From assembly GCF_037042905.1 (NCBI RefSeq), contig NC_087251.1:26414001-26478000 (forward strand): 64,000 nt of DNA. Direction: 5' to 3'. Source of the stretch: Lytechinus pictus (taxonomy: Eukaryota). The notes under the pieces are model-generated. The model searched no databases, was not told where the DNA came from, and worked only from the letters and a program-made list of their open reading frames with translations. Positions 1-64,000 of the stretch are shown piece after piece. The stretch's first letter is position 1, and each line of letters starts with the position of its first letter. Made by a program: the position numbers and the translations under genes.

Positions 1-969
1 TGATGTAAAACACAGGTAGATGTAGAGACACAAAGATGTAGGTTTCAGCTTGGGATAATTTGTTCAGGATACCATACCATCAGATCGAACATTATTCAAA
101 CATAGAGCAAAAAGCAAGCATTTTACGGAACCTAAGGTCACATTTCAGGCTCAAGCAAAATTCATCTTCACTTGGGCTGGTAGAGATGGGCCCTGGGGTT
201 TCTTGAATCTCAAGATTGAGCAAACTAGGACTAATGGAGCACCAGCTACATTCACTACCTACAGCATCAAAGCATTATTACATGAATCATTGCTACATTG
301 TATTTATGTCCTTCATTTCTAAATATATTCATTTCAGGATTGATAAACTACTGTACATGGAAAATAAAGATTTTGGAAATTTGGTAACAATATTAATTCA
401 CATTAAAAAATAAACATTTTGTGTTTAATCACCTCTTGACACCATACTTACACTGTAACAGCAACGAGGATTATGAATAGAGGAAATAAAACGGGAACTC
501 CTATACAAAAATGCTTCTTTCAGCCCAATTTCAATCATTTGTCTGCCGACCTTGTCCTAAGTTGTCTGTCCTATATCCTATTTAAAGGGATACTTCTTCT
601 TGTATGTTCTTTTAAATTTTCTTATTCAAATCATAAAGGATTACAATTACCGGCAATGATTTGATAAATTCATTCAATAAGTTTTAATGGGTATGCATTC
701 ATTCAAATCAGGCAAATTTGTTTTCTGACTCAAAATGAATGTTTAAGTTTCACTAGACCTTTCCCATTTTATTTCTCATGAATTTCATCAACAGAAGCAT
801 TACCATTACCTACATATGTTTACGATGGGTACATCAAATAAGGACTAGTGATCGATACATGCAGGTCAGATGGCTTGCCCTATGGACCAATAAAATTTTA
901 CTTCAAAATTTTAAACAGCAATGGGGGGACATTTTTCATCAAACACTCAACAAAGTAGGGTGCGTTGTT

Positions 970-1125
970 ATTAATAATAATAATATTAATAAACAGTTCT
1001 TGTATAGCTCATTATCACATTATGATTTTAACGTGCTTCCAAAGGACTTGGATATTATTATCCCGGCTTTAGCTTCGCAGCTGTAATTACTTACAGCGCA
1101 CATGCATTTCAAGGAATTATAGTAC
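970..1125 (-). mobile_element. 3' fragment of a SINE/LINE with (TTA)n-like tail
   Basis: (TAA)n run followed by ttcttgtatagctcatt...ccaaaggacttgg, resembling the reverse complement of L2/CR1-dependent SINE tails. Confidence 0.4.
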
Positions 1126-4039: not shown

Positions 4040-6404
4040 CTAGATACAGATTACAGATCTCATATTCAAAACACAAAGGGAAGACAGATTACCTGCATTG
4101 AAATCTATAGGCCTACATGTATGTTACTGTACATACAGATACACAGGCCTACTTCCAAGAAAAAAAGTAAACTTGATTTTGTATTGATGTCTTGCAATGC
4201 TTTGCACATTACATGTTTAATGATTGTATCAGCATATTTCAAGAAAACAGACTTCCTTTTAATAGACATAGTGAAAGCAATGCACACACATACTTGAATG
4301 GTAGTTGATGCATGATGCTTTCGGTCATAAATGCAGAGTATAGACAACCCTTTACAATGTATGTATTTCTTCAATACTGAAACTCAAATTTCATCGGATT
4401 GATAAACATGTACGTGTACTTTCATTGTCAAAACAACAACACTGATGTCATGAAACTATCATCTTCAAACCTATTCACAAATTTCACTTCCTGCTTTAAT
4501 ACTTCAATTTCAGAGAGTGAGTTTAGTCCTACATGTAGTTCTATGATCTTTTAAAGGGTTGCAATCAATCACTAATTATGCAATGATCAATAAGGCCATG
4601 GTTGCAATGTATTGTGTTCAAAATGATGACCATACACTAAGATCAGAATTTTTTACTTTCTTTGAAATTGCCAAAGTGAAAATGACTTGATGCAATTTTG
4701 GAGAGAGTAAAAACTCCATAAGCACTGCATATAACAATGGAGAATGGATTGGGAGAGACTATGTAGGCCCCTACACTTTTTTTTTACATATTTATTTTAG
4801 CTGTCATTTATCATAATTTGAATTAGATTGAATTTTAAGAGCATTTTTTTTTTACAAAGGACCATTTTCTTATGATACTCTCCAAATATATCTTCAAAAA
4901 TTCGGAAAGGTCACTATTTTTCTCTATCTTGCCCCAAACTGATGGGACATTCCATCCAATAAATTGAAATACATTGTTCATGAAGTTTTGTAATCAAACA
5001 ATTCATCCTTCTAAGATATGATTCGAGTCAATAGAGAAACAAGGTTAGAGCTGGAAATTTGGAAAGTACCTTTGGCCCTGATGTAAGCAACATCTTGATA
5101 TATCATCCAATCACCTCAGAGTCATAGTTTATCCCTTAATCCACTGACCAAATCTAAAGTACATTTGACATTTACATGTACCTACAGTTCCGTCTTACAC
5201 ATAAATAAAGGAAGAGCAAAAGTAGGGGTCAGATATTCTACAATTCATCACTTGCATATTTTAAAGGTACACAGTAATGTTGCAAAATGTTGAGAAAATA
5301 CATTCTTAAAATATAATGTCCATCTGTAAAATTTCTCTCCTACATAACTCTTTCCAGACTATTTTGTTTTGGGGGGAGAGGGGGACAATCTGCAAAATAA
5401 TATACATATGCAGTTATGCACTACATGTATATAAAATAAATATACCCTTTTGTTTTCACATTGAAAACGTAAGACCAAATCTTGCTTCGTGAGGGAAATT
5501 ATCCAATTCTATTGATTCAAACATAAAAAAAATTGAATGTGAATTAAGAAGAAAAAAATAAAGTAATGTTAAATTTATTTGGAAGGTAAATGTTAATACA
5601 AGAAAGACATTTTCCACTGGAATTGATGGTACAAAAATTACACCAATTATAGAATATTTTTAATTTTGTCACAACAAATAATCATGTTCTCTTCGACTAT
5701 TCATGGTTTTCCCAACACATCTTGGATTCAACCTGGTGGCAATATTTCCAGCTTAATTTTGTTTACGGAATTTTAAGTGGTTCTGCCCAAGACAAATCTA
5801 TTCAATTCACCCCCATTAGGCCATAACACCATATTCCTATCATTCAGAATTCTGAGATTTTGCCAAATTCACACTTGTCCCTCTTTCTTTGCTACTTTGA
5901 AAGCGGAAACCCCACGAGGGTGGAGGACAAAACCAAAGGGACTCTGAAGAAAGGACAATAGGGACAAAACCACTGGTCGTGTCCATTACACTCTATTCTG
6001 AGTCATTTAGAAAATACAGTAGTCTGCCCCCATGAGCAACCAAAAGAAAGGACCATTGTTGCATGTGCAAGTTGATAAGTTCAATTCAATCTTTGTTCAA
6101 TCTCCACATTTTTAAACTACGGTTTTAGAAGTTTAGTTCAAATTATTTTTACAATGGTTGTAAGAAATCAAAGTTTTTTAAACATCTATGAAACACTGAA
6201 AAGATGCGTTTTGAAAGAAGATTCTTCAAAACCATGGACTTTAGACAATCGTTTCAACACAAACCCCCCAAAAAATCTTAATCATAATTACATTACGGGA
6301 AATTCTGTCAGACATGCTTTACGACTTTTGCGTACACTCAAACTTGACCTTTACTTCCCAGTTCAAAGCCCACTGATCCATGATGTGCAGTGGATGGACT
6401 TTAA

Positions 6405-6999: not shown

Positions 7000-8306
7000 T
7001 TAAGAGGAATGATGACAAATTAATTCAATGTTACTCCCACTGTAACTATTTGGTGTTCACGTGTAGTATTTGTGATTCACAGCTACCGGTACATACATAG
7101 CTTAAAATCGATTGAACACACCTCAAGTTAAACTACCAAGGTAGTACAGTGTACCTCGTAAATTTGTTACAGGCACATTCTAGAGAAGCAAAGAAGAGAA
7201 AAGGGCTACAAATATTTGTACTAAGGTGCAATGTACACATAGACATTTTTACTGGGGTTGGAAGAGATACAAATTATCCAACCAATTGCTTTACAACTTC
7301 ACAAGTTTGAGGGAGCAGAAACACAATTAATGCGCAAGGTCTAAATCTGGAAACAAGTACAACAAGAGGTTTTGTAACCCAGTTCATATATTAAATAATC
7401 AAATTGATTTGTCTCCGCATTACTTTATTTCTAACAACTGAACGACTCTATTTTCTACAATAATATTACAAACAATGACAAAATTAGAGGGCCGTGGCTC
7501 TCAATGTCTTCAATGTCTTTGTGTGATAAACTGATATGTATTCATACAGAGCCAGGTACAATGTACTTTGGCAATTTCTGGTTTGTATACTATGTAAATG
7601 TACATTACCATGTACATGTGTAGAAAGGACTGTGTTTGTAATGGTATCGCAAAAAAAAAAAAACAGCGCGCCTGAGGTACATGTAAGCTTAGGTACATGT
7701 AGGTAAAGTTAGGATCACCCTGCTCTTTACTTGATCATTGCTGGTTAAACACATACATGTCGGCTCTACAAATAAAACTTGAGACTTGGGCGTCCAAAAT
7801 ATAAATTTCATTAATCTTGAAAATATTTTGAGGATTCAATTGTTTTTTAATGAGCTTATGATAGGCCTGTACATGTACAATGTATATTTTCATATTTCAA
7901 TCAGGCTAATTTCACATCGGGGGGGGGGGGGGGGGGGGGTGGGGGGCATTGCAATCTTGGACCCAACTCGTTTCAAAACAAAACCATATCACAACACAAA
8001 AAGATAATTACCAAATGTAGGCTTACATGTACATACTTTATATCAGAACTTATTGTTACCTATATTATACTGAGCAAATAAACATACAGCATTTCACATA
8101 CGTGTACATGTACAAGTAGGCTACCTTTAATTTACCTTTCCTGTTCTACATGTACATTAGCAATCTATGCATTCCAAGGCCTTGTATGGTGACAGTCCTA
8201 CATGTACATGTATTTCCATACAAATAAAACTGAAATGTCTACATGTACATGTCCATTACAAATACTACCGTATACTGCCATTCCACAAAAGTTAGATGAG
8301 GGTTAC

Positions 8307-8724: not shown

Positions 8725-8826
8725 CTGAAGCCAAAAAATGTAATTAACCCTCAGTCATGCAGTCCAAACAAAATTTTGGATCATACCTATAGGCCTACAG
8801 TATGGACTGTTGTTAGTACATGTATA

Positions 8827-9339
8827 CCCTTTTTACACACGCTAACATTTCCTTAACCCCGTACTATAGGTGGGGCTAAATTGCCATTTAGCCCCACCTA
8901 TAGTACGGGGTTAAGCTTAGCCCACTTTCTTTTTACACAGCATTTTTGCAAAGTGGGCTAACCCCACCTTTAGTACGGGATTATTTGGCCCTGCAAAATA
9001 GCAGGGTTATCCCAGCAATTGCGGTGCTAAGAGCGATAGTACGGGGTTAAGATCGCTAGTGTAAAACGAAAGTGGGCTAAATTTAGCCCCACCTATAGTA
9101 CGGGGTTAAGGAAATTTTAGCGTGTGTAAAAAGGAATGAACCCTCAGTGTGCTCGTGAATATTCATGAGCTACCACTAGTCCGGGGTTAGCGAGATTCGT
9201 GTGTGAAAAGCAAGCATTCCTTATCCGGGGTTAGCAATAACGATTTGGCATGTGTGAAAAGGAAAAAAGATAGTACGGGGTTAAGGATAGTACGGGGTTA
9301 GCGATAGTCCGGGGTTAAGAAAATCCTGTGTAAAAAGGG
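8827..9339. mobile_element. MITE with TA flanks and many internal TAGTACGGGGTTAAG repeats
   Basis: TA|CCCTTTTTACAC ... GTGTAAAAAGGG|TA; about 10 copies of tagt(a/c)cggggtta; internal hairpin around 8850-8915. Confidence 0.85.
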
Positions 9340-10276
9340 TAGTAGGGGACCAAAAGCAATGCATCATCTAAGCTCTTGGGAACTTTGTAATGAAGAAGAA
9401 TACCTAAAGGGCATTACAACATCAAATAAGTATTCCTGGGAGTTGAGGTCTACTGCTTAACCATTAGGCTTGTAATCCTTAAATTTTGCTTATTCTTATT
9501 ATATATTGTATGATTTTCACAAAATAAACAGCTTCGGTTAAATAAACATGTTTGACTTTTCACTATAAAAAAACAACAGACATAAGTACTCTACAGAGTT
9601 GAAATAACGGTCTGAAGCTCATTTCGTCCCTGGTGTGATCATCAAGGAGATTCTATTTTTTCTGATCACGTTTCTAATCACAACAGGAATTCCTGGACCA
9701 ATCTGAATCAATATGGAACTAAATTCCAAGCAAAAATCGAAACTGCCTCCTGATATTCCATGCTGCTTGCCTGGGCTTGCCTGGATTGTCTTTCACTTGT
9801 GACCTTTGACCTTGGATTCAATTATACAGCAATGTCAAGCCCACTGCTGGGATAGTTCATACCCCTTATTTTGGAATCAGTGTGGGAGCATTAACGTCTT
9901 ACCCAAACAGTCGTGAGCAATGTCTTTACTTGCATTTATCCTGAATGATTTCTTGATATGACTATGAGCATATGAGAAAGAAGCATTGTAAAGAAAACCA
10001 GTTTGAAATAATAATTCATTTGCATTTGCAATGTTTGTTCATTCTTTATATTCAGATTTTAGGAAAAAATCAATAAAATATTGGGGAAGTGACATGCTTG
10101 AAGGGTTGCGACTATCCAAAATCTTCACAAAATTGCATGCATGCATCGTTTATTCATACTCTTCTCACAGAGCAAAGATGGGTTTAGACTATATAACTAT
10201 GCATTTGTTTGCTTTTGTTCTTCATAATCTGCCTTTAATATCCACTTCCATCTTCTCTTCAGCTTGAGAGAGAAAA

Positions 10277-11169: not shown

Positions 11170-13552
11170 TATAGGAAGGTGGAATATAACATCCATCCCC
11201 TTCAAGTTTGTTAGTGCTGGAAACACTAAGCAGAATCAACCCGAAAGTGATTGGCAGACATTCTTGGAAGGAAATTACAAATAGCACTGTAGTTTAAGCA
11301 GGGATGTAAAATTTTGTCTTTCAAAATGTCAATCTTGTTTGCAAAAGGCTCAAAGACATGGTCTTACAGGAAGGCCAAGAAGATAGGTTTCATGTGATGC
11401 TGGAAAAATCTATTCCGAAAATGACGTCACATGCAAAATAAGACAAGTTTTGATGAATGTTAGGTTGCATTCAAGAAACATGATTTTCAAAAATGTTCTG
11501 TTCAAACAATAATTATATTCAGAGTTTCAGACAGTCATACAAACTTCTATAGTCATGAAACACAGATATTTGAAAGGCAATTCTGAAGAACTAAAGTAAT
11601 TTTAGAGAAAATGCTTGAATGAAATGGTTCAAGAGTCTTATGAAAACTTTTTCTGGTTTGGACTACATGTTTATCATGTACAATCCTTGTTGAGGGAGGG
11701 CTTGAAATGAGGGAGAGTCGGTATAGATAAAAAGTCACTTGAATGCTATATGCAGCCTGCACTGACATTGTTTTGTATTTTTGTTTGTGATGACTACATA
11801 ACTCCAGAACATTGATTGAACATGCTACAAAACTAAAGAAGGTCAGATAAAGTTACCTTGTGACCAGACACTAAGTGACAAGTTAGTTCTTTTTAATCTT
11901 CCCATTAGCAAAGAACTTGCTGAAAATAATTTGACTTTCTAGCAACAGATCATGAGATGGATGTAAAACCATCAAGAAGAATCTTGACATTTAGGTTGCG
12001 AGAAGAAATCCTGTATGGATTATGGTGTCAGACACCCTTGAAGCAGAAACGGCACGGAACCACCACCAACTCTGGCGAAACTCATCCCGCCGCCAGATGG
12101 CTAATGACTGGATACAAGACAACATGGCCTACTTTAATGAAACCGTTATCTCATCTAATTACAGTAAATTGGCAATGCCACTGTTAAGTGTGGTGTTGCC
12201 AGAGTTTCAGCTACTGGATATGGGCATGAGTCATAATTTCATCAAAATGAAAAAAAGGTGATAGTGTCCCTGAAAGAGGAGACATGTTATTCCCATCTGA
12301 GAGCACATGTTAGGTGATAACTGTCTTCAAGATATCATATGGGCAATGATGTCTCTTTCTGATATTTTGACAGGCTTGTCATGACAAATATTCTTACTTC
12401 GGAGAGGAACATGACTAGGGAGAAGTGGAATGCAATCATATGTGTCAGTTGTCATAAATGTCATAATTTTCACTAGCATGCTGTTTATATAAGAGGTTGT
12501 TGTCTCCATTAAAAAAAAATCTGTATTTGACTGTGCTTAACAGGTTCAAATTATGAAAATGATTGAACAGCAATAACCCACTCCTGTTCTCCTGCCTCCC
12601 CCAACCCTTTCCTTTCTCCATTTTTTTCCTTATTGATGCAACTTAAAAAAACATATAATGGGTTGAAAATAAAGAAACATTAGGGAGAGACCATGCTAAA
12701 TATTTTCAAATGTACATGGATATGCCTAATCCACATTTTTCGTAAATACATGTAACAAACAAAATTTTTGTAAAGATACATTATAAATGTTCACTAAACT
12801 TTTGGAAGGTTGGAATGCAAGATGATACACATAGTTGATAGCTGATACTCCAAACGGCTTAAAACGTAAACATAAAACACAAAAGAAAATCAGTTAAACC
12901 ATCTTCAAACATCCATGTCTTCAAATTATAAACCTTCCTTTGTGAATGCTGGACATCCCATCTAAAATTCATTTGTCTGAAGATCTTATGACTCATAATG
13001 AAACAAGCCCTTGAATACTACTTCATCCATACAAAGGACAAGGCATGAAACAATGGTGTCTTCATGGACACAAATCTTAATTTAAATAGGATTATTTTTT
13101 TCTAGACTGTGCAGCTTCCAGATTACATCCTCCTTAATACAAACCTCAAACACTATACAAGATGGATTATTCTTATAAGATTTTTAAAATAATTGTAGAA
13201 TTGATAACATAGCTCATGAGGGGAATACAACCCCAAGATAGATGTTTGAGGACAGAGCTTAAGGTCTAACCATTAAAAAGCTTAAGAGGATTTTACATGA
13301 TCTTAATTCAATATCTAATAATAGTAACAATGTTTCACCAAGGAATCACGTCATAGTAGTAGAATATATTCATGGTTTCGCAGATTTCTGTAATGCAAAA
13401 TCTTACTATAAAACTACATGTACAGTGTAGTACATGTAGACTATTAGCCTCCATCCTGTTATCAAACTTGTTCTGTATATTTTTGAAGATGTAATTTTCA
13501 ATAGCACTACATGTAGTACATGTAGCAGCATGATTATATTCAGTTCATGGCA

Positions 13553-23440: not shown

Positions 23441-24266
23441 CAAACAAGGCAGAAGCGATTTTGTCTCGCCCACTTATGAAAATAACCAGAAATATCTTGA
23501 TTTGCGAGGGCACGCAACAGAATTGTATCGAAACTTCATTGCAAAATGGCTGGGATGGAATAACACTTGCCATAAGAGTCTTGCATGTAAACTTCAATGT
23601 TGACCTCAAATTGAACTTTGACCTTACCATGTGACCTCCGAGTGCAGCATAACATGCAGGTCCCCCAAGTCCATCTACCATCCAAGTTTGGTTGAAAAGT
23701 GACTTACGGTTGCGGAGTTAGGTGTCATAATGAGAGTCTTGCATGTAAAATTTAACGTTGACCTGAAAATGACCTTTGACCTTACCATGTGACCTCCGAC
23801 TGCAGCTTAGTATGCAGGTCCCCGATGTCCATCTACCATTCAAGTTTGATTGAAAAGTGACATACAGTGTACGGTTGCGGAGTTAGGTGTCATAAGAGAG
23901 AGTCTTGCATGTAAACTGTAACGTTGATCTGAACATGACCTTTGACCTTACCATGTGACGTCTGACTGCAGCCTAACATGCAGGTCCCCAAGTCCATCTA
24001 CCATCCAAGTTTGATTGAAAAGTGACATACGGTTGCGGAGTTAGGTGTCATAATAGAGTCTAGCATGTAAACTTTAACGTTGACCTGAAAATGACCTTTG
24101 ACCTTACCATGTGACCTCCAACTGCAGCATAACATGCAGGTCTCCTAAGTCCATCTACCATCCAAGTTTGGTTGAAAAGTGACCAACGGTTGCGGAGTTA
24201 TGTGTCATAAGGTTTGTGACGGACGGACGGACGGACGATAGACGACATTTGGATCCCTAAGTCTCT
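23441..24266. mobile_element. HINE (Helentron-associated, Tsp/pearl-like) element with four ~160-bp tandem units
   Basis: Starts aaacaaggcagaagcgattttgtctcgcc; units gagtcttgcatgtaaa...ggagttaggtgtcata at ~23575, 23734, 23900 and 24056; then a (GGAC)n microsatellite and ggatccctaagtctc end. Confidence 0.75.
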
Positions 24267-25369
24267 ACAGCTGTAGATCTACATGTATATATAATAAAAT
24301 TCAAAATATCAATGTCTTCTCATGAACTTACTGTTTGTGTGTTCGAAGGCCTTCATTGGATATTTGGATTACATACTGAACATGAAGGTCAGTGACTGTC
24401 TTATGATAAATTGCAAATATCATCAGTTTTCAATTGGATGAAAGCAACATCTAACCAAATCATAAATTGTGGGTTTGAGGCAACTTTTCCTTTTCAATAA
24501 TTCTCATTGCAAAACCAATTTCCAAGATCTGTTTTTTTTTCTCTCTCTCTCTCAGCAACACAAACGGATTACTTTTCTCATCCCATCTGTCTCAAATATC
24601 ACACTGGTAGAATAACATTCAAGTCATGCTGCAAATATGTGCATGGTTTCATCCAATCACTAACATGAAACATGATGCCAAATCTCTGGAACAATACATA
24701 ATTACATTTTCCCCAATTTCCCACAGAAATATGCCTTTCCTCTCAGTTTCAGCATCATACATGTATGTTTCTCACTATATGCTTTTTTAAAGGTAAATAT
24801 CTCATAATCATTCAAAATTGAACAATTTGAATTCATTTTGAACTGCTCTTAACATAATGTTTATTGTAGATCGTCCTTAAATAACAAAAATAATTTTAAA
24901 AATCTCCACTGCTGATCAATTATTAATTGAAAAAGTTTTTCTGGAGGTTATTAGTTTCCAATTTTTTTTTTTTTTAGTTTCAGAGCAGAAGTTTCCTTTT
25001 AAGCTCAACATCAGATACACAAGAAAAAAAAAGATGATGGGCATTTAAACATAGTATTGTAAATATCTATTCAATTTGAAGTGGTTTTGTTGTGGTTAAG
25101 GGTATGCTTAGGCATTCATCAATCAAGATATCTGTTAGATATGTGTACACCACACCAGTGGTTTCAGGCTGTGGGAAAGAATGAATGATTCAGTACACGC
25201 CTATACACTTAATTTGGTAGAGTACTGAACATGAATTAGAGGCCTGCAGTATCGTTGTTTTTTATACTACAGGTACAGTACTGGTACTTGAACAAGAATT
25301 TGACAATTACAAAATGTGGATATGGCATCTTCTTGAACAACAAAAACTGAAGAACATATGATATCATAA

Positions 25370-37048: not shown

Positions 37049-39719
37049 CAGTTCTCTCTTTTGCATAGAGTCCAGGGTTCTATATCATAAAGATGTGTTA
37101 TAATATCAAATGGACAATTTCTACAACTAATAAACTATCAGCTTTGAATCAAATTGAATGATTTCAGTATCTTAAAACTGTTATTGCAAATTTATTATTT
37201 TGACAATTAATTTTGAAAATGGCTTGAGAGCTCTGTAACAAAAAAAATTTAGCAGTTGATTGAAGAACAAATTTTCCAAATTGATTGAATTGGCCACAAT
37301 GCAATTAATTGTGAAAAAAATTAATTGTACATGTATGATTAATCATGAAGCTCTGCGTTAAGTACACTGTATGCTTGTTTTACTTTTTTTTCTCTATTAT
37401 TTTAACTCAATATGTTGATGGGGTAAAACGTTTGTTTTGCTGAAACAGATTTATATATGTAGGTCTACATGTATGATTTTAACAATTTAAGATAATTGTA
37501 ATACGGTACTCAGATTCATCAAATCAATCCTATAACTACCAAATATTTATTGTTATCTAATTGCTATGGCAACCTAAAATAGTCCCTCTGGCCTCCAGGC
37601 ATGACTACAGAGGAAGGGCTATTTCCTTCAGGGACACTCCAGGGCTAACACAGCCCATACATGCACATTCTCAATCTCACTAGGTTTTTTTCACCTGTGT
37701 CACACAAACTGACCATTGGCTCTGCTTCATAAAGATCATAAGCAATAACAAATGCAAAAATTCTGCGAAAATTTTACTCTGACCCAATTAAATCGCATAA
37801 TTTTAGTAGCTTATAACAGCAGTTAATAACATGCAGTTGATAACACGTTTAAAGAAATAGAACTTCAGATAGATGAGGATGAAACATACACGACATACAG
37901 AGCAAGGCTACATGTACATGCTACAAGAGCGAGGGGGGGTGTTCAAGAGAATAAGAAAATGGCTTTTCACCAGTTAAGGATATATACAGTGTACCAAAAT
38001 ATAAATTAACAAAACATACAGAAAAGTCCTTTACCCAAGCTCAATTTACCAAAGATAGCGGGCCAATATATTCTGAATATCCAAAATTTGTTAAAAACAA
38101 AAAAATGTAATACATTCTGTGAATGTGCATGTGTGCAAATTGGTAATTGATTCTGGAAGCCAATTCAGGAGATGGTGATAAGGACACGAGTGAAGCGATT
38201 TTCTAAACTTGGTTTCTCAAACTGGCTAAAGGGAGACCAGTTCAAGAAAGTATACTAAGAACGAGGTCACTCAATTCATGTTTAGACTGTCATCCGTCCA
38301 AGAAACAATCTCTCCCCAATTCTGTACATATTAGGCCTAATTCATTACACTATAATGAAGAAAAAATACCACTTTTTGTATAAAGTGGGCACTTAGAATT
38401 AACCTGCAGGTGTTTTTGAAAAGTCATAATTCAAATCAATAAGTCTACAACCATGATGGAACTTCCATCTATTGTCCATAATTCATTTATTTTTACTTCA
38501 AAATTGGAAACTACCAAATAAGTGATTAATATTCTCTTCTACCTTAAGTCTGAAATATTGATTTATTGAAATTTCAGGTTGATTATGAGACTACACTGTA
38601 CATGTATACAGACATATGGGACAGGATGACAACATGGCAAAGCAAACAAATGATTGCAATTTGAGGGAGTAAAAAAAAACTTTTGACTTTAACAAAAGAA
38701 ATTAATCAGATCTAAGATGTGAAGTAATAAGGACAGGTCATTGAATTCTAGCTTGATTCAAAAACCCATAATGCCCTATGATCACATCTTTGATTGGTTG
38801 ATTTTTTTTTTCAAGAAGAAAAAAAGCTCAAAGCATCAATAAACTGATTCTTTAACTTATCACAAGACTTTCCATTTAAATAAAATGTATTTTTCTGCAG
38901 GTAAAAAATGGTAATCTTCTAAAGCAACTTGGCATCACCATTGACATTGTAATTATATCACAAATGTACAGTAAAAATTGATAGCTACAGTTTATGGTCT
39001 TGAAATTTCAAGCACATCAATCTTTAAAGAAAGATATCAAGTATTTCCGAAATATTACCAGAAGAGTGTACAAACTTAGGCATTTCATTCCCTGTTTATT
39101 AGTTTCGAATTGAACTCCAAAGGTCACAGAATAAAAACTCAAAAAGTACATGTAGTAGGCCTATACATGTATTTCTGGTAAACTGTATTCAAGGAATAAA
39201 GGATCCTCAACTTCTTTCATTTTCATCTCTAGCTTCATAATCATGTGGTTAACCACAATGAGCAAATGTTTCCTCTTCAGCACAAATAGAAATATAGAAA
39301 TAGAACCCCATTTTTTCCTTTGTAAACCAGCTCGATATTTTAGAAATAGTTGCAATTTGTACCTTTTAACAGTATTGGGACAGTATTAAGTCAAACACAC
39401 TGGGTCCCGGCCATTTCCATCAGGATCTAGTCTGATTGAAATGGGTGCTTATTATAGGCCCGAGTCATATTGATTATTTTGTAAAAATGGTGTTCAACAG
39501 CTTCAATTCGATCGAACATCGATGCATCGAATTTTAAAGGTGGGAAAATCAAGCCAATTTTTTTGGCTCTGTCGATATACATGAACGCACTGCAAGTGCA
39601 ACGATATGCGCTAAGATCGGGGGTATGCGTTGCACTAGATGACAGAGCAAAGTTCGTTTTCCATGATCACAAAAAAAGGGACCAATGCAGGATTCTTCCC
39701 AAAATATCTACAACAACAA

Positions 39720-49116: not shown

Positions 49117-49206
49117 ATGATTTATTTATTATTTCTGTTTTCTCAAGAAAGAGTGGTCTCTTTAATAAAAAAAAACTGAGTTAAGTAGAGAGCCCTGTAA
49201 TGATAC

Positions 49207-50469: not shown

Positions 50470-51612
50470 AAACTCGGCTCTCTACACCAGGGAAACTCAA
50501 TATAAAAATGAAATTGGCATGCCCACACAGATACACCTAGAACATTTTCACATTTCGGGGGCAGGAGTGAAGAGGCTCCGAGCCCCCATCCACGTATAAG
50601 TATTTTTTGAGCGACTCAAACATCCACACCACAGTCGCACTCAAAGTCAAAGAAATTGAAGCATATTGATTATTGCAACTTAAAACTCGGCGCTCTCTAC
50701 ACCAGGGAAACTCAATAAAAAAAAAAAAAAAAAAAAAAAAAATAGGCCTAAAAATAATCAATTTGAAGTTAAAAATTAAGCCCCCAAATAAACATTTATT
50801 ATTGATGGCTACCTCAGCCCGGCATGCCAACACATCTACACTGCGAATATTTTTTCACATTTCGGGGGCAGGAGTGAAATCGCCCCGAGCCCCCACCAAC
50901 GTAAAAGTATTTTTTGTGCGACTCAAACATCCACACCACAGTCACACTCAAAGTCAAAGAAATTGAAGCATATTGATTATTACAACTTAAAACTCGGCTC
51001 TCTACACCAGGGAAACTCAATAAAAAAAAAAAAAAAAAAAAAATAGGCCTAAAAATAATCAATTTGAAGTTAAAAATTAAGCCCCCAAATAAACATTTAT
51101 TATTGATGGCTACCTCAGCCCGGCATGCCAACACATCTACACTGCGAATATTTTTTCACATTTCGGGGGCAGGAGTGAAATCGCCCCGAGCCCCCACCAA
51201 AGTAAAAGTATTTTTTGTGCGACTCAAACATCCACACCACAGTCACACTCAAAGTCAAAGAAATTGAAGCATATTGATTATTACAACTTAAAACTCGGCT
51301 CTCTACACCAGGGACACTCAATATAAAAAAAATAAATAAAATGAAAAAAAAAATAGGCCTAAAAATAATCAATTTGAAGTAAAAAATTAAGCCCCCAAAT
51401 AAACATTTATTATTGATGGCTACCCTCAGCCCGGCATGCCAACACATCTACACTGCGAATATTTTTTCACATTTCGGGGGCAGGAGTGAATCGCCCCGAG
51501 CCCCCACCCACGTAAAAGTATTTTTTTGTGCGACTCAAACATCCACACCACAGTCACACTCAGTCAAAGAAATTGAAGTATATTAAATTATTATCTTAAA
51601 GCTCTACACCAG
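50470..51612. repeat. Tandem ~300-bp units in the right arm of the foldback element
   Basis: ctctacaccaggg anchors at ~50480, 50695, 50998, 51300 and 51602. Confidence 0.9.
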
Positions 51613-52809
51613 GGAAAATAAAAATAGAAAAAATAAAAAAATATATATAAATATTTACAAAAAAAAGGCAGAGCCTATACGACACTGCCAAGCTTCAAGC
51701 TCTAGTTCACTCTCTCACTCAGTCAAGCTCAGCTCTTTGACTGTGCACGCCCACTTCCATTTGGGGATTCGGGCTGAATCCCACCCCGCCAGTTTAGGCG
51801 GCCGAGCTACGTAGAATTGCGATGAAGAGCAGCGGACCGTTCATCGGTTGTTCGCTCCTTGCGACCAGAGAGAAAAGGTGAAAAACTTTAACAAAATCGT
51901 GCAAATGCACCAAATTTTATTCTTGTGATGAGAAAATGGAGTTAATGGAATACAAGAATGTCCATCTTCTGCGATAAAAGTGGTAACTTGAGGAGAAATG
52001 ATCACAAAATCAAGTCAGTTGTTGAGTGGGGCCGAGCCGAGCACCGACACAGTTAATACACGCGCGCCTATGGGAATCGCGAGCTGTCGAAAAACGCCTA
52101 AAATTACACTTTTTTTTAATTTCAGCGAAAAAAAAAGGAATAGAAAGTGAAGAACATTACCATCAGACCATATCTCTAGAAAATCTTTACAAGAAATTAC
52201 GAAATGACGGAAAAATAGACGCAAATTTGTGGAAAAAAAATCTCGTAATGGGTGGGACAACTCGGCCCGCGGTCCGAGATGTCCCGTGGTCCGAGTTGAC
52301 CCGACCCCCAATGAACAAGGTTATGATATAACCTTGTTCTCAGTATCTCCATGTGTGGCAAAATAAGGATGGCAATGTTTGGCTTATTTTCTCTTTTTCT
52401 TTGGGACAAATGCTTGATTTTTTACACTGACAGTTTCCATTACACACCTATTTGTCATACAACTTTGCCCTTAAGTAAATTTGATTCTTTAAATAATTTT
52501 TTTCTTAATTAAAAATAGAGATAAAAAATGAAAATTTTCTTGCCATATTAATTTTCCACCAATAGAGGGCGTACACAAAAATATGCCCAAAATTCAAGTT
52601 TTTGAGCGCTCTAGTGAATACAAAAATTATTCCCAAGTTACTTATGAAAAATAAATTGCAACTGTATGGAAATTAGTAATTTTGGTCACAAAAATGATAT
52701 TTTAATGATTTTTAAAGTGTGTGCTCTGTACAGCATTGGCATGCCATAGTCTTACCTGTAGATTCCCCACAGGCAGGGTGGTTGCAGTGAACAAGTGGAC
52801 CAGGCCTTA

Positions 52810-53468
52810 CCTCGAGCGAAGTTCGTGCAGGCTCCACTCCACTTCACTACCGCTACACTACGCTTCACCTACCCGAACTTCGAGACCATGAACTCGATCG
52901 GATATTCCGAGTGACAAAAGGTGGGATTTTATGGGGAGAAAATACAAAATTCATGCAACATCACGATCTTTAAAAACAAGTGCAACTAATATTCTTACTT
53001 TACACAAAGTTTCACTTCTTTTCCATGCTTCTATCAGTCTCAAAATTGATGATTTAGGGCCAACATGAAGTTCCTCACACGTATAAATATTAATGCGCTG
53101 CCGACTTCAAAACATCGCATGCGGGAGGTACCGGGTCTGGTCCGAGCTTGGACCCTCGCGCGCATGCGATGTTCTGAAATCGGCAGCGAATAATTACGTG
53201 TGAGGAACTTCATGTTGGCCCTAAATCATCAATTTTGAGATTGATAGAAGCATGGAAAAGAAGTGAAACTTTGTGTAAAGTAAGAATATTAGTTGCACTT
53301 GTTTTTAAAGATCGTGATGTTGCATGAATTTTGTATTTTCTCCCCATAAAATCCCACCTTTTGTCACTCGGAATATCCGATCGAGTTCATGGTCTCGAAG
53401 TTCGGGTAGGTGAAGCGTAGTGTAGCGGTAGTGAAGTGGAGTGGAGCCTGCACGAACTTCGCTCGAGG
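52810..53468. mobile_element. 659-bp almost fully palindromic MITE (TA TSD)
   Basis: TA|CCTCGAGCGAAGTTCGTGCAGG ... CCTGCACGAACTTCGCTCGAGG|TA; arms of ~315 bp with a short spacer near 53140. Confidence 0.92.
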
Positions 53469-53795
53469 TAGACTAGGCCTATGCTACTTGCTAGGCCTTC
53501 ATGTAGTAAGTAGTTCAAGTCATCGCAGTTAAACTTTATCATGTTTGACTCGTTCAAGAAAAATGACAGTCTATGCAATCCCCCACAAATACAAATAGAT
53601 CTACATTGTACACTGACTACACACCCTTATTTAATTGTATATATCTCAATGATAGATCTATTTAAAATTATTTAATGTCCGTCAAAAAAGAATTATTCGC
53701 CCACACTTGAATTGTGACAGGCCCCGATTACCAACTTAACTTTAAATTATCTCCCTGTAGGAGTGTAGATCTAGTAGATATAATATCTAACTTAA

Positions 53796-55603
53796 AGGAC
53801 AAGTCCACTCCAACAAAAAGTTGATTTGAATAAAAAGAGAAAAATCCAACAAGCATAACACTGAAAATTTCATCAAAATCGGATGTAAAATAAGAAAGTT
53901 ATGACATATTAAAGTTTCGCTAAATTTCACAAAACAGTTTTACTTTTATGCACATCCTGGCTAGTATGCAAATGAGGAGACTATGACGTCATCCATGCAC
54001 TCACTATTTCTTTCGTATTTTATTATATGAAATATGAAATATTCTAATTTTCTCATTTGTCAAGTGATACAACGATTAATTCCTCCCTGAACATGTGGAA
54101 TTAGCATTGTTTAATACTATATGTTTCAGTCAAGTTGGTCCTTATTACAAATCTAAAAAAAAAAATGAAATTTTGTATACCGTAAGTAACGGTGTATTAA
54201 CCGCACCCGTGTATTAACCGCACCCCCCATTTTCGGATGGAAAAAAAAAAAAATCAAAAAAAAAAAAAACTTACTTTCTATCTCTAATATGCGTATTTAA
54301 GAAAGAGTCAAGAACCAAAAAATATCGAAGAATTACTGGTAAAAAATGATGGGAAATCAGCGCTTCGTCACTTATCTGCAAGTTGCCGACATATTGGCCA
54401 CTTCCACACTCACCGCACACACACACATATGGTACCGGTGTTCATTGCAAGTACCGATACCAGCATCAACATGGGGGCTCACCCATACGAGAAGATCGTT
54501 CATATCATATTTCCTGCATCACAGCCCCACTTTTGCTTTCAGAATTCTGTCTAGCATTCAATGTCTTGACATGAATTTTAGACAAGGGAATTCGGGAAGG
54601 TTCAAGATACGAGAAATTTGCGATTTTGTTCAGGTGTTTTTCTTGTCTGCTTTGAACCACTACCGGTAGTTCTCAGTACGTGTGTGGCGGTATCTTACAG
54701 ACAGCAAAAAAGGGGGAAAAAATGCTAGTACCGGTATACCGTATTTTCAATGGGAGCTCTGGGCGGGAATAAAGTGAATAATATAATTAAAAATAAAAAG
54801 TCGGAAGGAGTGAAGATGGGGATTGAAGATTGATTTTGAGATGATGGATGATAGAGAGAAATGAAGGAAAGGCAAATGAAAGAAATTAATTGTCAAATAA
54901 TACCAATAATTTGTCAAACAAAATAACTTCCACGGAAAGGTAAAGCGCCAGCTTACGTTGACGTTGCGATAAACATTACACATGCATGTCTTATTCGGCT
55001 AGCTGCACCGCGCTGTGCGATTGATTGGCGTCTGAACTTTGCCGCGATGACTAAAAAATGACAACAAAGACAGAGTCACACCATTAAAAAAAAGTCAGTT
55101 TCATGAAGGTAGGTGCGTTTGTTACCGTGATATAACCTTGAGGGACATTTACGGCAGATACCGGTAGTCATAGTTGCTTCCCTTTTATACCCGCGGCTCA
55201 TACCCCTCTAAACGGGATTGCCCCAAGCGGCTACGCTCGGCCACCCGACGCGAGTTGAAAACTGGTAGTGGTATCGGGCTGAGATTGGCTTGGCTCAGAC
55301 CTGTCACCGTGTATAAACCGCACCCCCGACTTTTGATTCTGTCCCGCCGAGAAAAAGGTGCGGTTAATACACCGTTACTTACGGTAATTCAAACAATAAA
55401 AAACAAAAGAAATAGTGAGTGGTGGACATCATCGACTGACTCACCTAGTTGTGCGTATCACTGTTTTGTGAAAAATAAGCGAAACGTTAAAATGTCATAA
55501 CTTTGTTATTTTACATCTGATTTTGATGAAATTTTCAGCACTATGCTAGTTTGATTTTTCTCTATTTATTCAAGTCAGCATTTTCCTGGGGTGGACTTGA
55601 ACT
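53796..55603. mobile_element. Kolobok-like MITE (TTAA TSD) interrupted by a nested element
   Basis: TTAA|AGGACAAGTCCACTCC ... GGGGTGGACTTGAACT|TTAA; long subterminal inverted similarity. Confidence 0.85.
54180..55384. mobile_element. Tc1/pogo-like non-autonomous element (TA TSD), nested
   Basis: TA|CCGTAAGTAACGGTGTATTAACCGCACC ... GGTGCGGTTAATACACCGTTACTTACGG|TA; perfect 28-bp TIR with subterminal repeats. Confidence 0.92.
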
Positions 55604-55945
55604 TTAAGTAACTTAGCGACAGATCTAGATCTAGTCATCAATAAGGAAATTTAAAAAAATCACAAAACTTAAACTAAAGGTAAAAGAGAGTAATAGCAGC
55701 AAACAATTATTTCATGAGAAAGCCATTAAAATAAAATCAAGGCTAATTACCACCATATTATCATAGATCTAGATTTCATGCTTATTTTGCTCATTTCTCA
55801 GCAATTACACTTTTTTTTCCAGAGCCAATTGGCACATATTTTTATACAAACGCTTGGGTGGTCATTTTATTGGATCCTGTTCGAACTAATTTTGAGATCG
55901 TTATCACAATTTGGAATTTTGTGATGTGAAACATGTATGTTAGCT

Positions 55946-57743: not shown

Positions 57744-58340
57744 AACTTAGCTGCTCCTTCTGCTGCTTCTGTGAGAAAATTACTTTCAGTCATTATGAAC
57801 AATTAAAATCAGGGAAGTAATGGAATTTACATTACAAGACATACACTACATGTACATGTATTGCATATGATTGGTATGTAAGAACTTACATTATGTAGTA
57901 CATTCGTAGAGTGTACAAGTACTACACGTATGTAATTTTTTGTTTAATTCTGGTAAAATCCTCACTGATATCTTATATTTCAATTATTCTGCTTCCAATA
58001 AGCCAACTTATTCAGTGGGTGAACTTCCCTTTCTATAATTTTAGTTAAATATGGTATAGGAGTGTACCATTCCATTGATGAGTCATATAGTACATGCGTA
58101 AGATATGGTAACACAGTACACCCACTCCCTTTATGAATGGGATTTGACCGTAAAGCAATCACTAAGTTGAAAATAGAACTTGCATTTGACTGCACATTCT
58201 CAACACGTGAGACTGAATAATACATTGAGGAGAGGAGTTTACTGTCTTGTGATTAAAAAAAACAAATTTTACCATGAATAATCTGCCAGTAAGTAATTTT
58301 ATGGTAGAAATATTTAATAACTGAACTGTATTTATAAGTA

Positions 58341-59158
58341 GGGGAAGGCGGGGTAAGTTGAGCCACCACCCCCAGGCCAATAATGATAGAGTCGGACATC
58401 GTGGTGGTGCCATGTATTGATGACCCATTGCATAACCCCTAACCCCACCACATTTTTTTCAACTTTGAAACAAAAAGTACTTTTTTAGAGGAAAAAATAC
58501 AAATTTCAGCCAAAAAGTAAAAAAGGGTGTGAAATAGAAATGTGCTTTTTACACGCACACGTCTTTAAATATAATAAAGACATAAGAACAACATTGTTAG
58601 TCCAGGTATGGATCTTCATTCTTGTTGTAGTTTTTTACATGATGGATGCATAAGAAATGTGTGGATGCGAAATTATCGCATTAAGTTAGGACTGGGGTAA
58701 GTTGAGTAAGCCAACATGGGGCAAGTTGAGCCATAGTAATTCTTATGGTAATGTATGTATAAAAAAAAAAAACCTTAAAAAGCCATTGATATGCAGGCAG
58801 AAAGGAGCAAATTTACATGACTGTTCTCTTCCTTTTAGAGGATGTTGGTATTTATAGAGAATAAGCGAGTGAAAAGACTTTAAATAAAAAGATTGACATG
58901 GTGGTTCTTTCCCCATACATATTGTACATAGTTTTTGTGGCTCAACTAACCCCACAGATGGGGCAAGTTGAGCCATTTGACATATCTTTTTTCAAAGGTA
59001 ACAGTGACTTTCAGTGTGGGGGTAGAAAGTTATATATAGGTGAAAAACATTTCAGAAGAATGAGATTTTAAGGCAATGTACTTATTTCTCCAAGATCATT
59101 AATCATATCAATTCTAACATGCAAAAAGCAAAGTGTCACAACTTACACCGCCTTCCCC
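58341..59158. mobile_element. Tc1/mariner(pogo)-like MITE (TA TSD)
   Basis: TA|GGGGAAGGCGGGGTAAGTTG ... CAACTTACACCGCCTTCCCC|TA; internal repeats of gggg(t/c)aagttgagcca. Confidence 0.9.
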
Positions 59159-59160
59159 TA

Positions 59161-61925
59161 TAGTCCAGGATAGAAGGGGTCGAACCTTGTTTTTTTATAT
59201 ATACAATGTTTTTTTATGGTTTCTTGTCAATTCGAGGGTGCTGATTCCGAATCTGAATGATGCCACTCGTGTAACCTTGAGCATTTTCTGCAAATTGGCA
59301 AAATCCAATATGGCCGCCAAAATATTCAAATTACCCATGAAAATCATAAAATTGTCCACACATTGGCTATAAAGTACATGCAATTGTGCTGCTGAAGTGA
59401 AATAATATCTGAAAAATGATTTTTGTCAAAATATTTATTTTCTTGATATCAAAATGGCCGCCATCATAGACCCCTGTACAATATGAATGGGGAAAATTAA
59501 TTTTTACAAAATTGAGCACTGAAATGCAAGTAATTATGATCTATGAGTGAAGCAATGTCTGAAAACGTGTTTGCTAACGATATATATCATTTGTTATGTC
59601 AGTTATGTGATAAATCCTGTATTTTTATATTCAAAATGGCCTCCAAAAGCCCTAACACTATTATGTACAATGTGAATGGTGACACAAAAAAATCACAAGA
59701 GTGAGCACTAAAATGCATTTTGTTAAGATAAACGAGTGGAATACTGACTAAAAACATTATTGTTAACGAAATTTATTATTTAACATGCCATGTATGTGAT
59801 AAACCCTGTATTTTGATATTTAATATGGCCGCCAAAGGCCCTAAAATTATGATCTACGATGTGAGAGAGGACAAAAACAATCACAAGGTGAGCACTAAAA
59901 CGTATTTTTTTGTGGTAAATTAGTGGAATACTGTCTTCAAATATAATTTGCAACGAAATATATCATTCGGATTTCATATTTGTGTCAAATTTTGTATTTT
60001 GACTTTCAAAATGGCCGCCAAAAGACATTGACTGTATTATGTACAATCGATCTGGGAAACCAATTTTCACAGGAGTCAGCACCATAACATGCATATAATT
60101 GTGATTTAAGAGTAAAATATTGTCTGAAAACATAATTTCTAACAAGATATATCATTCATTCTGCCAGGTAGGTGATGAATGATGTATTTTGAAAGTCAAA
60201 ATGGCCGCTACAGGCCCTAACGGTAGGCCTATTATGTACTTTGTGAATGGGAACATATAATTTTAACAGAATTTGGCTTTGCTTGACTAAATGGTGTCGC
60301 ATGTGTGAGTGAAATATCGTCTGAAAATATGATTTCTAACCAAATAGATCATTTCTTATGTTATTTAGGTGATAAATGCTATATTTAAATTTCAAAATGG
60401 CTGCAATATGTTTCTTTGTGGAAATTATCTTTCCCCATTGAAATTTTACATAATAAGATAAGGGACTATGGCGGCCATTTTTCATTTTTAAAGGCTGCAT
60501 TCATCACCTTTATGACACAAGCTATGTTATATTTCATTAGAAATCATTGGGCTTAGACAATACTTAACACTTACATCAAAATTAAGCCATTTTCATAGTA
60601 AAAATTTTGTCAAAATTATCTGTCCCCAGTTACAATGTACATACTACTTTGGGCTATGGCAGCAATTTTGAATTTCAAAGTAAGGCCTTTATTACCTTCT
60701 CAACCATTATGTGATGTATTTAGTCAGAAATCATATTCAAGACCAAATTTTACCCATACATCACATAGTTACGTGCGTTTTTGGTTCTCATTCTGGTGAT
60801 GATTAGTTTCCCTATACGCATGTTACAGAATTTGTAGGGGCTTGTGCGGCCGTTTTGAAAGTCAAAATACAGTAGTTATCACCTACATGGGAGAGGAAAT
60901 GTTATATTTTATTAAAAAAATAACGTTTTCAAACAATATTTTCCTTATACAACAGAATTATATGGATTTCATAGTCAGGCAAATCCTAATTCTTTCAAAA
61001 GTATTTGTCCCCATTTACATTTTAGATAATACTGTAAGGGCCCATAGGGGCCATTTTGAATTTTACAATACAGCATTTATCTCATGCATGAAAAAGGAAA
61101 TGATATGTTTTTTAGACAATATTTCACTCGTAGATTACAATTACATTCATTTTATTGTTTTTACTCTTGTGAAAATTAGTTTCTTCATTTGCTTTGTTCA
61201 TAATACAGATAGGGCATATGGCAGCCATTTTGAATGTCAACATGCAGCATAATTACCGAAATTGCAAGGGAAATGATATGTTTCGTTAGAAATCCTTGTT
61301 GTCAGACAGTGTTACACCAATATTTCGCAGTTATTGGCATTTTAAAGTCAAACAAATTCAAAGGTTGTGAAAATGATTTGTCCCCTTTTAAATATTGTAC
61401 ACAGTATAAGGGGTCTATGACAGCCATTTTGAATATCATAATACAGCATTTATCACATTAGATAGTATACAAATGACATAGTTTTGTTAATAGTCATGTT
61501 TTCAGACAGTAGTCCACTCGCAGGTCACAATCACATGCAATAATAGTGCTCTTGTGTGAAACAATATTTTCCCCATTCATATTCTACATAATAAAGTATA
61601 CAGTGGTTATGGCGGCCATTTTGAATATCAATAAAATAAATATTTTGTCAAATATCGCTTTTCCAATTGGTATTTCACTTCTGCACAACAACTACATGCA
61701 TTTTATAGCTAATGTGTGGGCAATTTTATGATTTTCATGGGTAATTTGCATATTTTGGCGGCCATATTGGATTTTGCCAATTTGCGGAAAATGCTCAAGG
61801 TTACAAGAGTGGCATCATTCAGATTCGGAATCAGCACCCTCGAATTGACAAGAAACCATAAAAAAACATTGTATATCTAAAAAAACAAGGTTCGACCCCT
61901 TGTCTATGGGGCCTATCCTGGACTA
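59161..61925. mobile_element. Academ-like non-autonomous foldback element (TAG termini, 3-bp TSD CTA)
   Basis: CTA|TAGTCCAGGATAG ... CTATCCTGGACTA|CTA; ~250-bp TIRs, then mirrored ~185-190-bp degenerate repeats containing AAAATGGCCGCC. Confidence 0.88.
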
Positions 61926-64000
61926 CTACTGTACATCGTGTTCATGTAGTATGCAGTACACAGGAGAAGAAAAAAATCTTTATGGGCATACATTTTGATC
62001 TCACCAAACAAACTTTGTGACATTGCACAGTATTACAGTTTTAATTGGACTGTACTATATGGGAATTTCCATGCATCTTTTTTTTTTTTTTATAAAGTTT
62101 TGGAGGGCTCTTTTATTTCATCGGCGCCCCCCCCCCTGTGTATATTAATTGGGATCTGTAGATGGAAGGAGATGAATTTTAACCAGTTGCCCTTGACCCC
62201 ATGCCACCAGAAAGTTATTTGCCACTCTGACATTAAATGTTGACCAGCTGGTTTAATAAAATTGTGTAGCCTAAATGATCAAGGTTGGAGCTCCTACATA
62301 AAAATATTATCACACAAATGTCCATTGGACCCTTTCATATTACTGTAAATATCTCATGAATTGTCAGTTCTATAATGTGTCAGTTGGACAAGCAAGCAAA
62401 CACAAATTGGGTAATTTCATACCTTTTTTATCAGCAAAACTATTGTAGATTCTCAGGAACATGAATGCAAATGTAGTTAACGCTATCTTAATTTCACATC
62501 GGAGAATAAATGGTGAGACACTGAAACTCAAATTATTGGAAGATTTTAAGTTTGTCATGAAATAATTGTCCTTTCAGTGACTTATGCTTGTGAATTTTAG
62601 GAAGAGCCAGTTCTAAATGTAAGTTATTATTTATTGCTCTATTATCAACACAGTTCCCACATATATTCTCCACTTAACCAATAATTTGATTGGTGCTATA
62701 TGTATGCTTCAAAGACTTCTTGCTTTTGAAGAGCGGCTGGTCACATGGAATTTCACAGACAAATGGAATGTACTTTAATACATCCCTTGCTAAAAATATC
62801 AAGAATGCAAAATTCATTTGGAATGATTTCCTGCATAAACCTGTCATTGTAAGAATATACCGGTACTTCAGAAAGTGCAAGTTTATGTTGTTGTGAAACC
62901 TTGAATTGCTGATATACAATGTGCATGTATATCAATGTTATGTGTTTAGCCTCCCTGTATATGGCCAGTAACGTAGATAGTGGGCGTGGCCTATAACTAG
63001 TTCCACCTGTCAGTCATATAATATGTCAGACTTGTTAACCCCTGAAACCTGATGAGGTATGATCAAGGATGATAGAGCTCTGTATACAGCTCTGTATATA
63101 TAGAGGGAGTTATTCCAAAGTCAAGGTTTATCTGTTTGTGTGGGTAACTGTATGCCTACATTGTAGATTTAAAGTATTATGTTCTATGGTTGCTGATAGA
63201 GCAGTTATTTTTCAACACCATTGCCATTGTGATGTAAGTATAAAACCATGAAAATTATTTTTCTACTGGGAATTGTTTTTTCCTGTAGTAGATTCCAAAT
63301 CACTGGTGCCATTTTTTGCAAGTTAGGCCTTTAGGGAGATGGGGGAGGGGGTGGTGCCTTTTTTGACATTTCAGGGGCAGAAACAATCCCTGGATTGCCC
63401 TTACTCCGTGGCCCAGTAACATTTTCTTGTTACCAACTTGTAATGAAGGGTCAATGACAGTGTTTTGTATTAAATTGAGCAAAGAATTGGGTAGCTGGTA
63501 ATGCTGGTTGTTAATTTGTCTCCTTATTCCGTATTCACTACTTTTTGTGCAATAAAGATGCAAATAATCATTGATGATATATTTCCATATGTGATTTTAT
63601 AATATCTGAGAATGAATGGATCTGTTCAAAGTAAGGAGGGTACATTCAGTGCTATTTCAATCACCAAGATATTAAATGCAGTGAAAATCAGACTGTTTAT
63701 GTTACCTGGGGCTCCTTGTCAATTTCAGGAAAAAAATGCAATCCTGGCTTGTCAACGCTCCATTTGTTGTTGACTAATTCAATTTGTGGGTGCACTGAAA
63801 AATAGTTGGCAGGGAAATAGGTCACTGAAATGGGGATCGACCAGTTTACAAACCTTTGAAAACAAAGTCCTTTCGATTGTAAACGTTAAATTTGCCTGCA
63901 ATTTTCCTGACATAGCAACAATTATGGGAACTGGGCAGGCTAGTTGAATATATGCAACTCCCCACTTGGTCCACTAGATACATTTACATGTAGAAGTGGG

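Follow-up and report, generated by a model that had tools for sequence, protein, structure and literature searches.

Palindromic TA-framed octamers in a 64-kb window of Lytechinus pictus as probable excision footprints of several cut-and-paste transposon families

We analysed a stretch of 64,000 nucleotides of the Lytechinus pictus genome (contig NC_087251.1, positions 26,414,001 to 26,478,000, called the window below), in which short palindromes framed by TA dinucleotides recur far more often than in shuffled sequence. Four octamers, 71 copies of TACATGTA, 15 of TAGGCCTA, 7 of TACCGGTA and 6 of TAGATCTA, form together with 30 TAC(A/T)GTA and 16 TACA-N-TGTA variants a field that extends from 1217 to 63992. 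The octamers are most likely heritable excision footprints, a net gain of 6 bp (+6) each, of several TA-targeting cut-and-paste families of the Tc1/mariner-superfamily type, produced by an end-joining reaction that keeps both two-nucleotide overhangs. All counts refer to this single window, not to the genome as a whole. Its GC content is 36%, it is non-coding, and it carries many inverted-repeat elements. None of its 263 stop-to-stop frames (at least 58 amino acids) scored above the Pfam cut-off for a gene or transposase, two weak hits lying under it, and a crude scan of the window for exons returned short candidates only and identified none.

The octamer field is a real and strong feature of the window. 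An order-2 Markov background, trained on the window after removal of the inserts, predicts 2.5 copies of TACATGTA, 0.34 of TAGGCCTA, 0.25 of TACCGGTA and 0.68 of the fourth octamer, TAGATCTA. Mean counts in 150 trinucleotide-preserving shuffles, carried out in 1-kb blocks on the motif-collapsed window, were 2.87, 0.33, 0.19 and 0.65 respectively, which corresponds to a 9 to 45 fold enrichment, and the observed counts were reached in none of the 150. Three of the 15 TAGGCCTA are copies within one internal repeat, leaving about 13 independent occurrences. Homopolymers aside, TACATGTA is the most over-represented 8-mer of the window, and TAGGCCTA, TACCGGTA and TACATGTA occupy the first three ranks by ratio among the 256 palindromic 8-mers. 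An earlier, sequence-only reading of this DNA had described TACATGTA as present dozens of times and had named five clusters, all of which are where it placed them, but had not listed TAGATCTA; the enrichment of TA-NNNN-TA octamers over a Markov background, which it proposed, was borne out by the order-2 test at the scale of the window. Seven of the TACCGGTA sites that it listed were confirmed (7084, 25623, 26206, 54661, 54729, 55159 and 62858), but the one at 54433 turned out to be TACCGGTG, which differs by one letter. Two other words were noted window-wide: TAGCGCGCTA, found twice for 0.01 expected (order-2; 2080 words were tested), and TATATATA, found 18 times for 3.8 expected.

The contribution of the TA frame was measured by a flank test, with 16 palindromic flanks per core. 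The TA flank was the outlier for CATG (71), GGCC (15) and CCGG (7). Strong enrichment was limited to TA-flanked palindromes, as expected of Tc1/mariner-superfamily footprints, which are bounded by a duplicated TA, and the sole further CATG word enriched in this test was GGCATGCC (7 vs 0.4). The position of small indels within the word was also scored. Random decay should leave indels all over the word, and the joining of two TACA ends should leave them in the middle. Deletion of a central base, TAC(A/T)GTA, was found 30 times for 11.3 expected, and insertion of one, TACA-N-TGTA, 16 times for 2.45 expected; neither count was reached in any of the 150 shuffles. Off-centre deletions of TACATGTA were at background (20 vs 18.3 and 21 vs 18.5), and so was an off-centre insertion class (5 vs 3.0). 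For the CATG core, heterogeneity is limited to the joint, and we infer that the centre of TACATGTA is the point where two TACA ends were joined, with a base sometimes lost or gained there. Alternatively, TAC(A/T)GTA may stem from families in which the cut lies three bases inside the end, because this 7-mer is the canonical Sleeping Beauty footprint, TACAGTA/TACTGTA (PMC6943129). Both origins fit the data.

Selection provides a different explanation for TACATGTA: judging from sequence matches, the word might be kept as a transcription factor site, for an Irx homeodomain, a BEN-domain or a Myb-type factor. It is the reported preferred Irx site (PMC3520976, citing Berger 2008) and a very abundant promoter motif in Phytophthora (PMC3520976), it is bound by PsMyb37 (PMC11134190), and it lies within an oligonucleotide crystallised with the NACC1 BEN domain (PMC11472053). 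That most tested sites are common to haplotypes, and that TACATGTA is absent from repeat elements (see below), also speaks for selection. We nevertheless consider this explanation very unlikely. ACATGT with other palindromic flanks is near background (AACATGTT, 4 vs 4.0; CACATGTG, 0 vs 2.5; GACATGTC, 1 vs 1.2), and the excess of one-mismatch neighbours of TACATGTA, 88 compared to 49-57 expected, fits neutral decay. Moreover, binding sites leave unexplained the three other TA-framed cores, the centre variants, and the mixed stacks and insertions in repeat units described below.

Elements whose ends match two of the cores lie in the window itself. Three TA-flanked inverted-repeat elements have CC..GG ends: the first occupies 8825..9341 including the TA (element 8827-9339) and directly adjoins the TACATGTA at 8817, the second occupies 52808..53470 (element 52810-53468) and has arms of 276 nt that are 100% complementary, and the third, at 54178..55386 (element 54180-55384), contains three of the seven TACCGGTA. 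The fourth, at 58339..59160 (element 58341-59158), has GG..CC ends. All four had been pointed out by the sequence-only reading, and all are real. Two bases retained from each CC..GG or GG..CC end would give TACCGGTA and TAGGCCTA respectively, and for these two octamers the inner bases are indeed the element termini. The four elements are non-coding and are placed in the superfamily by their TA duplication alone; the CCGT ends recall what we take to be Tc2/pogo-type families, and the GGGG ends presumably Fot1-like ones.

Sister copies of repeats give the polarity of two clean insertions. At 60224..60231 (+ strand), TAGGCCTA is an exact 6-bp insertion (+GGCCTA) at a TA in one subterminal repeat unit, starting at 60186, of the element 59163-61910; on alignment, 8 of the 9 sister units show a full 6-column gap and the ninth a 3-column gap. 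At 23863..23871 (+ strand), TACAGTGTA is a 7-bp insertion at a TA in the second unit of the tandem repeat 23575-24211 (unit length 158 bp), and 3 sister units are without the seven letters. Net insertion is seen, then, for the GGCC core and for a +7 variant of the CA type. A less exact case is the large foldback at 46065-52302, in which TAGGCCTA, or a word one letter away from it, is present in four outer units: three 301-bp units within 50743..51361 (+ strand; 50743, 51044 and 51354) have TAGGCCTA itself, the innermost left-arm unit (around 47297) is without it, and the 5-letter gap there adjoins an A run. A survey of paralogous repeats of the window yielded 169 indels, among which six rows were of 6 bp, two of them the 60224 event and four unrelated. 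No CATGTA insertion was among the 169, because none of the 71 TACATGTA lies inside the 18 delimited repeat segments (15.3 expected, p = 5×10−8). These segments were drawn by hand and cover 15.1 kb and 1079 of the 4997 TA sites. The absence of TACATGTA from them may mean that the elements are younger than most of the CA-type activity, or that the family avoids them. Beside 34423, homology of a short interspersed repeat stops just before the motif, so that the alignment is uninformative on insertion.

Insertions also bear on an origin by decay of CpG, in which TACGCGTA or a similar word would turn into TACATGTA by deamination of methylated C on both strands. The non-repeat DNA has an observed/expected CpG ratio of 0.47, which falls to 0.38 around TACATGTA, below the first percentile of resampled TA sites. 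The symmetric products of such decay are however unenriched (TATGCATA, 2; TATGTGTA, 2; TACACATA, 8), the precursor TACGCGTA is absent (0 copies), and enrichment extends to TACCGGTA, which contains CpG. Substitutions are moreover unable to make the insertions at 23863 and 60224, and the correlation between motif density and CpG level in 2-kb bins was not significant (rho −0.16, p 0.43). Product counts and the absent precursor refute CpG decay as the origin, and we leave it practically no chance. Separately, two CpG-rich zones (10001-12000 and 40001-46000, observed/expected 0.8-0.96) hold only 2 TACATGTA in the approximately 7.8 kb outside repeats, the density elsewhere being about 1.6 per kb.

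Repair without any transposon would, on the other hand, also give insertions that have a central joint. Breaks at TA steps could be healed by fold-back or templated insertion of the polymerase theta type, which writes a palindrome, sequence bias limiting the products to a few cores. No CA..TG element is needed for this, and none was found in the window. Fold-back repair copies the flanks of the break, however, so that cores should track background, yet strong enrichment is seen for 4 cores out of a possible 16. Of the four, two are made of G and C only, in DNA of low GC content, and match element ends of the same window, while TATGCATA and TAGTACTA (2 and 0 copies) are unenriched. We regard such repair as an improbable source of the field, although the least improbable of the alternatives considered.

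The octamers also pile up on one another. Eight pairs among the 99 octamers share a TA, whereas simulations of re-insertion gave 2.0 when sites were drawn uniformly, 2.3 when they stayed within 2 kb and 2.7 when they stayed within 500 bp (p 0.002-0.007 over the three), and gaps of 30 bp or less numbered 18, compared to 5.6-8.2 in these simulations. Three of the eight pairs mix two cores and five are CATG with CATG. Examples of mixed stacks on one TA are TAGGCCTA with TACATGTA (4108..4121) and TAGATCTA with TACATGTA (24274..24287); two TACATGTA share a TA at 8199..8212 and are separated by one base at 13508..13524. Clusters were found at 7678..7701 (two TACATGTA flanking a TAAGCTTA), 39147..39171 (TACATGTA, TAGGCCTA, TACATGTA) and 25557..25630, the densest mixed one, with two TAGGCCTA, three TACATGTA and one TACCGGTA. 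Even around the 47 isolated TACATGTA, 19 of 94 flanks carry a second decayed or variant scar, compared to 3.8% at other TA sites (p = 2×10−9). Scars had been proposed to serve as new targets, and both the shared pairs and the second-scar flanks agree with this. T is avoided beside the TA, where 6 of 75 unstacked half-sites have it compared to a background of 34% (p = 2×10−7), with A or G favoured, as a target preference of the enzyme would give. The CATG scar supplies such a favoured flank, a plausible cause of the re-targeting.

Minor cores are also clustered, in two patterns that were noticed before testing: the concentration of three TACCGGTA within the CC..GG element 54180-55384 (p = 1×10−4), and that of five of the six TAGATCTA within 2.2 kb (53596-55771, p = 6×10−5), two of these being in short (TAGATC)n runs. 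This suggests local hopping. The TAGATCTA cluster predicts either local hopping by a GA..TC-ended TA family or an earlier element with copies inside it.

Slippage during replication, or tandem duplication of a short TACATG unit as in a young hexanucleotide microsatellite, could be invoked for the stacks of like cores, since five of the eight shared-TA pairs are CATG with CATG and some tracts attain 17-19 bp. For a duplication to occur, however, period-6 sequence must already extend over at least 12 bp, and of 66 (TACATG)n tracts 54 measure 8-11 bp, 25 of them a bare 8 bp. The longest, 19 bp, is at 36517..36535, so that tracts comprise at most about three units, not the several perfect ones of a microsatellite, and the claim of microsatellite-like tracts in the sequence-only reading did not survive. 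Slippage cannot produce mixed-core stacks either, and the 5:3 ratio of same-core to mixed pairs is close to what independent re-insertion predicts from motif frequencies. It is disfavoured as an origin, with scarcely any probability left to it, but may have secondarily lengthened some tracts.

An excision origin would account for these observations as follows. An element would insert at a TA and duplicate it, as seen for the CC..GG and GG..CC families in the four elements of the window. Transposase would then cut at the 3′ ends of the element and two bases inside its 5′ ends, by analogy with Tc1, whose excision leaves non-complementary two-nucleotide 3′ overhangs (PMC4490562), and with ISY100, which is cut two bases inside the 5′ ends (PMC2170065). 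The chromosome ends would each be left with TA plus the first two bases of the element as a 3′ overhang. These overhangs would be unable to pair, and end-joining would usually keep and fill both, giving TA-xy-y′x′-TA whatever the terminal dinucleotide, self-complementary ones excepted, with a net gain of 6 bp; published end-joining footprints consist of the first or last 2-4 bases of the element (PMC6943129). Loss or gain of one base at the joint would give TAC(A/T)GTA or TACA-N-TGTA, as the centre-focused variants suggest. With both overhangs kept, the core would record the terminal dinucleotide of the family, that is CA, GG, CC and, by prediction, GA. Within coding sequence, CATG and CCGG scars would preserve the reading frame and introduce no stop codon. 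Each scar would leave two TAs in a favoured context, where later hops of the same or another family could stack; the stacking is observed, and its cause is put forward here. Scars would finally decay by point mutation, most being old enough to occur in both haplotypes.

For age, the one-mismatch excess corresponds to a decay of roughly 5-7% per site, if a single age is assumed. Haplotypes were compared by aligning four sequencing runs to 30400-39400, indels being bounded from the lengths of the pieces and their numbers of gaps. In run X1 (organism A, the same species), three contigs differed from the window by 11-13 substitutions per 0.8-1.0 kb, that is 1-2%; a fourth was identical to it and hence uninformative. 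At TACATGTA 31220..31227, a contig of organism B, a related organism (about 3-10% different on the pieces listed), stops aligning at 31223, the base predicted for an empty site. This is weak evidence, as it is 1 of 30 organism B piece ends that falls at a predicted empty-site break, with a chance of about 0.08. On this limited evidence current polymorphism is low: most scars look old and common to haplotypes, which fits the decay estimate.

The claim of an excision origin, made from the sequence alone, has gained support from the TA-only flanks, the centre-focused variation, the two clean insertions polarised by paralogs and the match of two cores, out of four, to element ends. A number of observations weigh against it. 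The three X1 contigs span 11 TACATGTA and are without only 4, 9 and 5 letters, so that at least 10 of the 11 are common to both haplotypes, and organism B is not missing six letters at 32620 or 36047. No filled and scarred alleles of one site were seen, in read alignments that were swamped by high-copy repeats. Since no TACATGTA lies in the delimited repeats, paralogs give no polarity for any exact copy. The 64-kb window yielded no inverted-repeat element of the form TA-CA..TG-TA, nor a GA..TC-ended TA element matching TAGATCTA, nor a transposase among the 263 open reading frames; because the first and last of these are lacking, the source of the dominant TACATGTA is unseen in the window. With the GG and CC cores, centre variants show little or no excess (8 vs 3.4, reached in 4 of 150 shuffles, and 5 vs 2.6, reached in 18 of 150). 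Finally, the +4 scar TACATA/TATGTA is unenriched (69 vs 70.9 expected).

This last point matters for the comparison with Tc1 of C. elegans, which shares the TA target, the two-nucleotide non-complementary 3′ overhangs and taCATGta as a footprint (PMC3520976, PMC4490562). In the worm, taCATGta is rare (PMC3520976, citing Eide and Anderson 1988) and the +4 scar is the usual one, making up 78% in the soma (PMC12632400), whereas in the window the +6 scar dominates and is inherited at about 1.5 per kb, a difference that also speaks against the excision origin. In the germline of C. elegans, homologous recombination or polymerase theta repairs most breaks (PMC12632400, PMC13148408). Sleeping Beauty and ZB also have footprints made of terminal bases between two TAs via end-joining (PMC6943129, PMC7913693), and the TACAGTA/TACTGTA form is enriched in the window. 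Sleeping Beauty keeps one 3-nt overhang (+5), unlike the dominant scar of the window, which has 2 nt from both ends (+6) and also comes with GG, CC and GA cores. Rice provides a case of natural, inherited excision marks recovered from genome sequence (PMC4423477); they are mostly ragged, 8 of 94 being perfect, and a second genome was needed, whereas the scars of the window are uniform and stand out as over-represented words in one genome, a further discrepancy to be set on the same side. The Phytophthora motif (motif-1 / AM-20) is the same octamer, very abundant in non-coding DNA and with tandem examples (PMC3520976, PMC11134190). There, a Myb protein binds it, and a footprint origin was considered and rejected by the authors (PMC3520976); in the window, evidence of the insertion type favours footprints. 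In the literature searched, with partial coverage of subscription journals, we found no report of an animal genome-wide TACATGTA/TAGGCCTA/TACCGGTA multi-core footprint field, and the available parts of the lancelet variation papers PMC4284660, PMC12862219 and PMC7008246, and of PMC5521727, do not mention one.

Other repeats are numerous in the window, where elements occupy at least 15.1 kb (at least 24%), compared to 594 bp (0.93%) for the 99 inserts; any growth of introns through such inserts, as the sequence-only reading proposed, would be small. The foldback at 46065-52302 is 6.2 kb long, with arms of 1092 nt that are 100% complementary, 301-bp internal repeats and no coding frame found, and the 8-bp duplication that flanks it is displaced from the ends of the arms; we take the element to resemble Mutator/TU-type foldbacks. 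The 2.7-kb element 59163-61910 has TAG..CTA ends and subterminal repeats of about 189 bp on both arms, sits in the very end of the GG..CC element 58341-59158 with a likely 3-bp duplication, and is presumably Academ-like. At 53790-55609 a TTAA-flanked element, which we assume to be Kolobok-like, has the CC..GG element 54180-55384 nested in it, and related TTAA-flanked ends occur at 6401-7003 and 20981-21091. A small, high-copy inverted-repeat element at 30615-31195 has an 8-bp target duplication; one organism B contig appears to run to about 30622 and to resume at 31223, as if the element were absent there. The high-copy interspersed repeat at 33690-34420 shares its 3′ part with the short interspersed element 41342-41525 and shows heavy one-strand coverage by RNA reads. 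One raw RNA run (about 6 in 100 reads sampled) gave near-zero depth on unique window sequence, which is no firm indication as to expression. The 50-bp segment 56341-56390 recurs at 56596-56654, 255 bp downstream, in the apparent start of another repeat, which suggests a small templated capture. Further copies of a repeat end were sought in viral and metagenome contigs; the 1 + 54 exact matches obtained were put down to chance, none of the 55 loci giving a BLAST match to the window.

The mechanism considered here is already known; the contribution of the window lies in the joint occurrence of several cores, in matching element ends, centre-focused variants and insertions polarised by paralogs. 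Excision is half of the cut-and-paste cycle, and can seldom be counted in natural genomes. If the six-letter scar of every family is constant and contains the terminal dinucleotide of that family, then excision-to-insertion ratios, target preference, local hopping and the choice of repair in the germline become readable family by family, and reading from sequence only would extend to vanished families. The finding also calls for caution, as the top-ranked motif of a motif-discovery run on a genome of this kind can be a mutational scar. A bolder proposal, to which we give only tentative credence and which may well be wrong, is that near-deterministic end-joining in the germline, keeping both overhangs, has written a family-resolved and datable ledger of excisions, at about 1.5 per kb and about 1% of non-coding DNA, which would outlast the elements, re-attract insertions and mass-produce the preferred Iroquois word; the same process might even have given rise to the abundant TACATGTA motif of Phytophthora promoters. 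As the CATG scar is identical to a reported Irx site, excision is a candidate route to new binding sites, and selection could act on a minority of scars after they arise.

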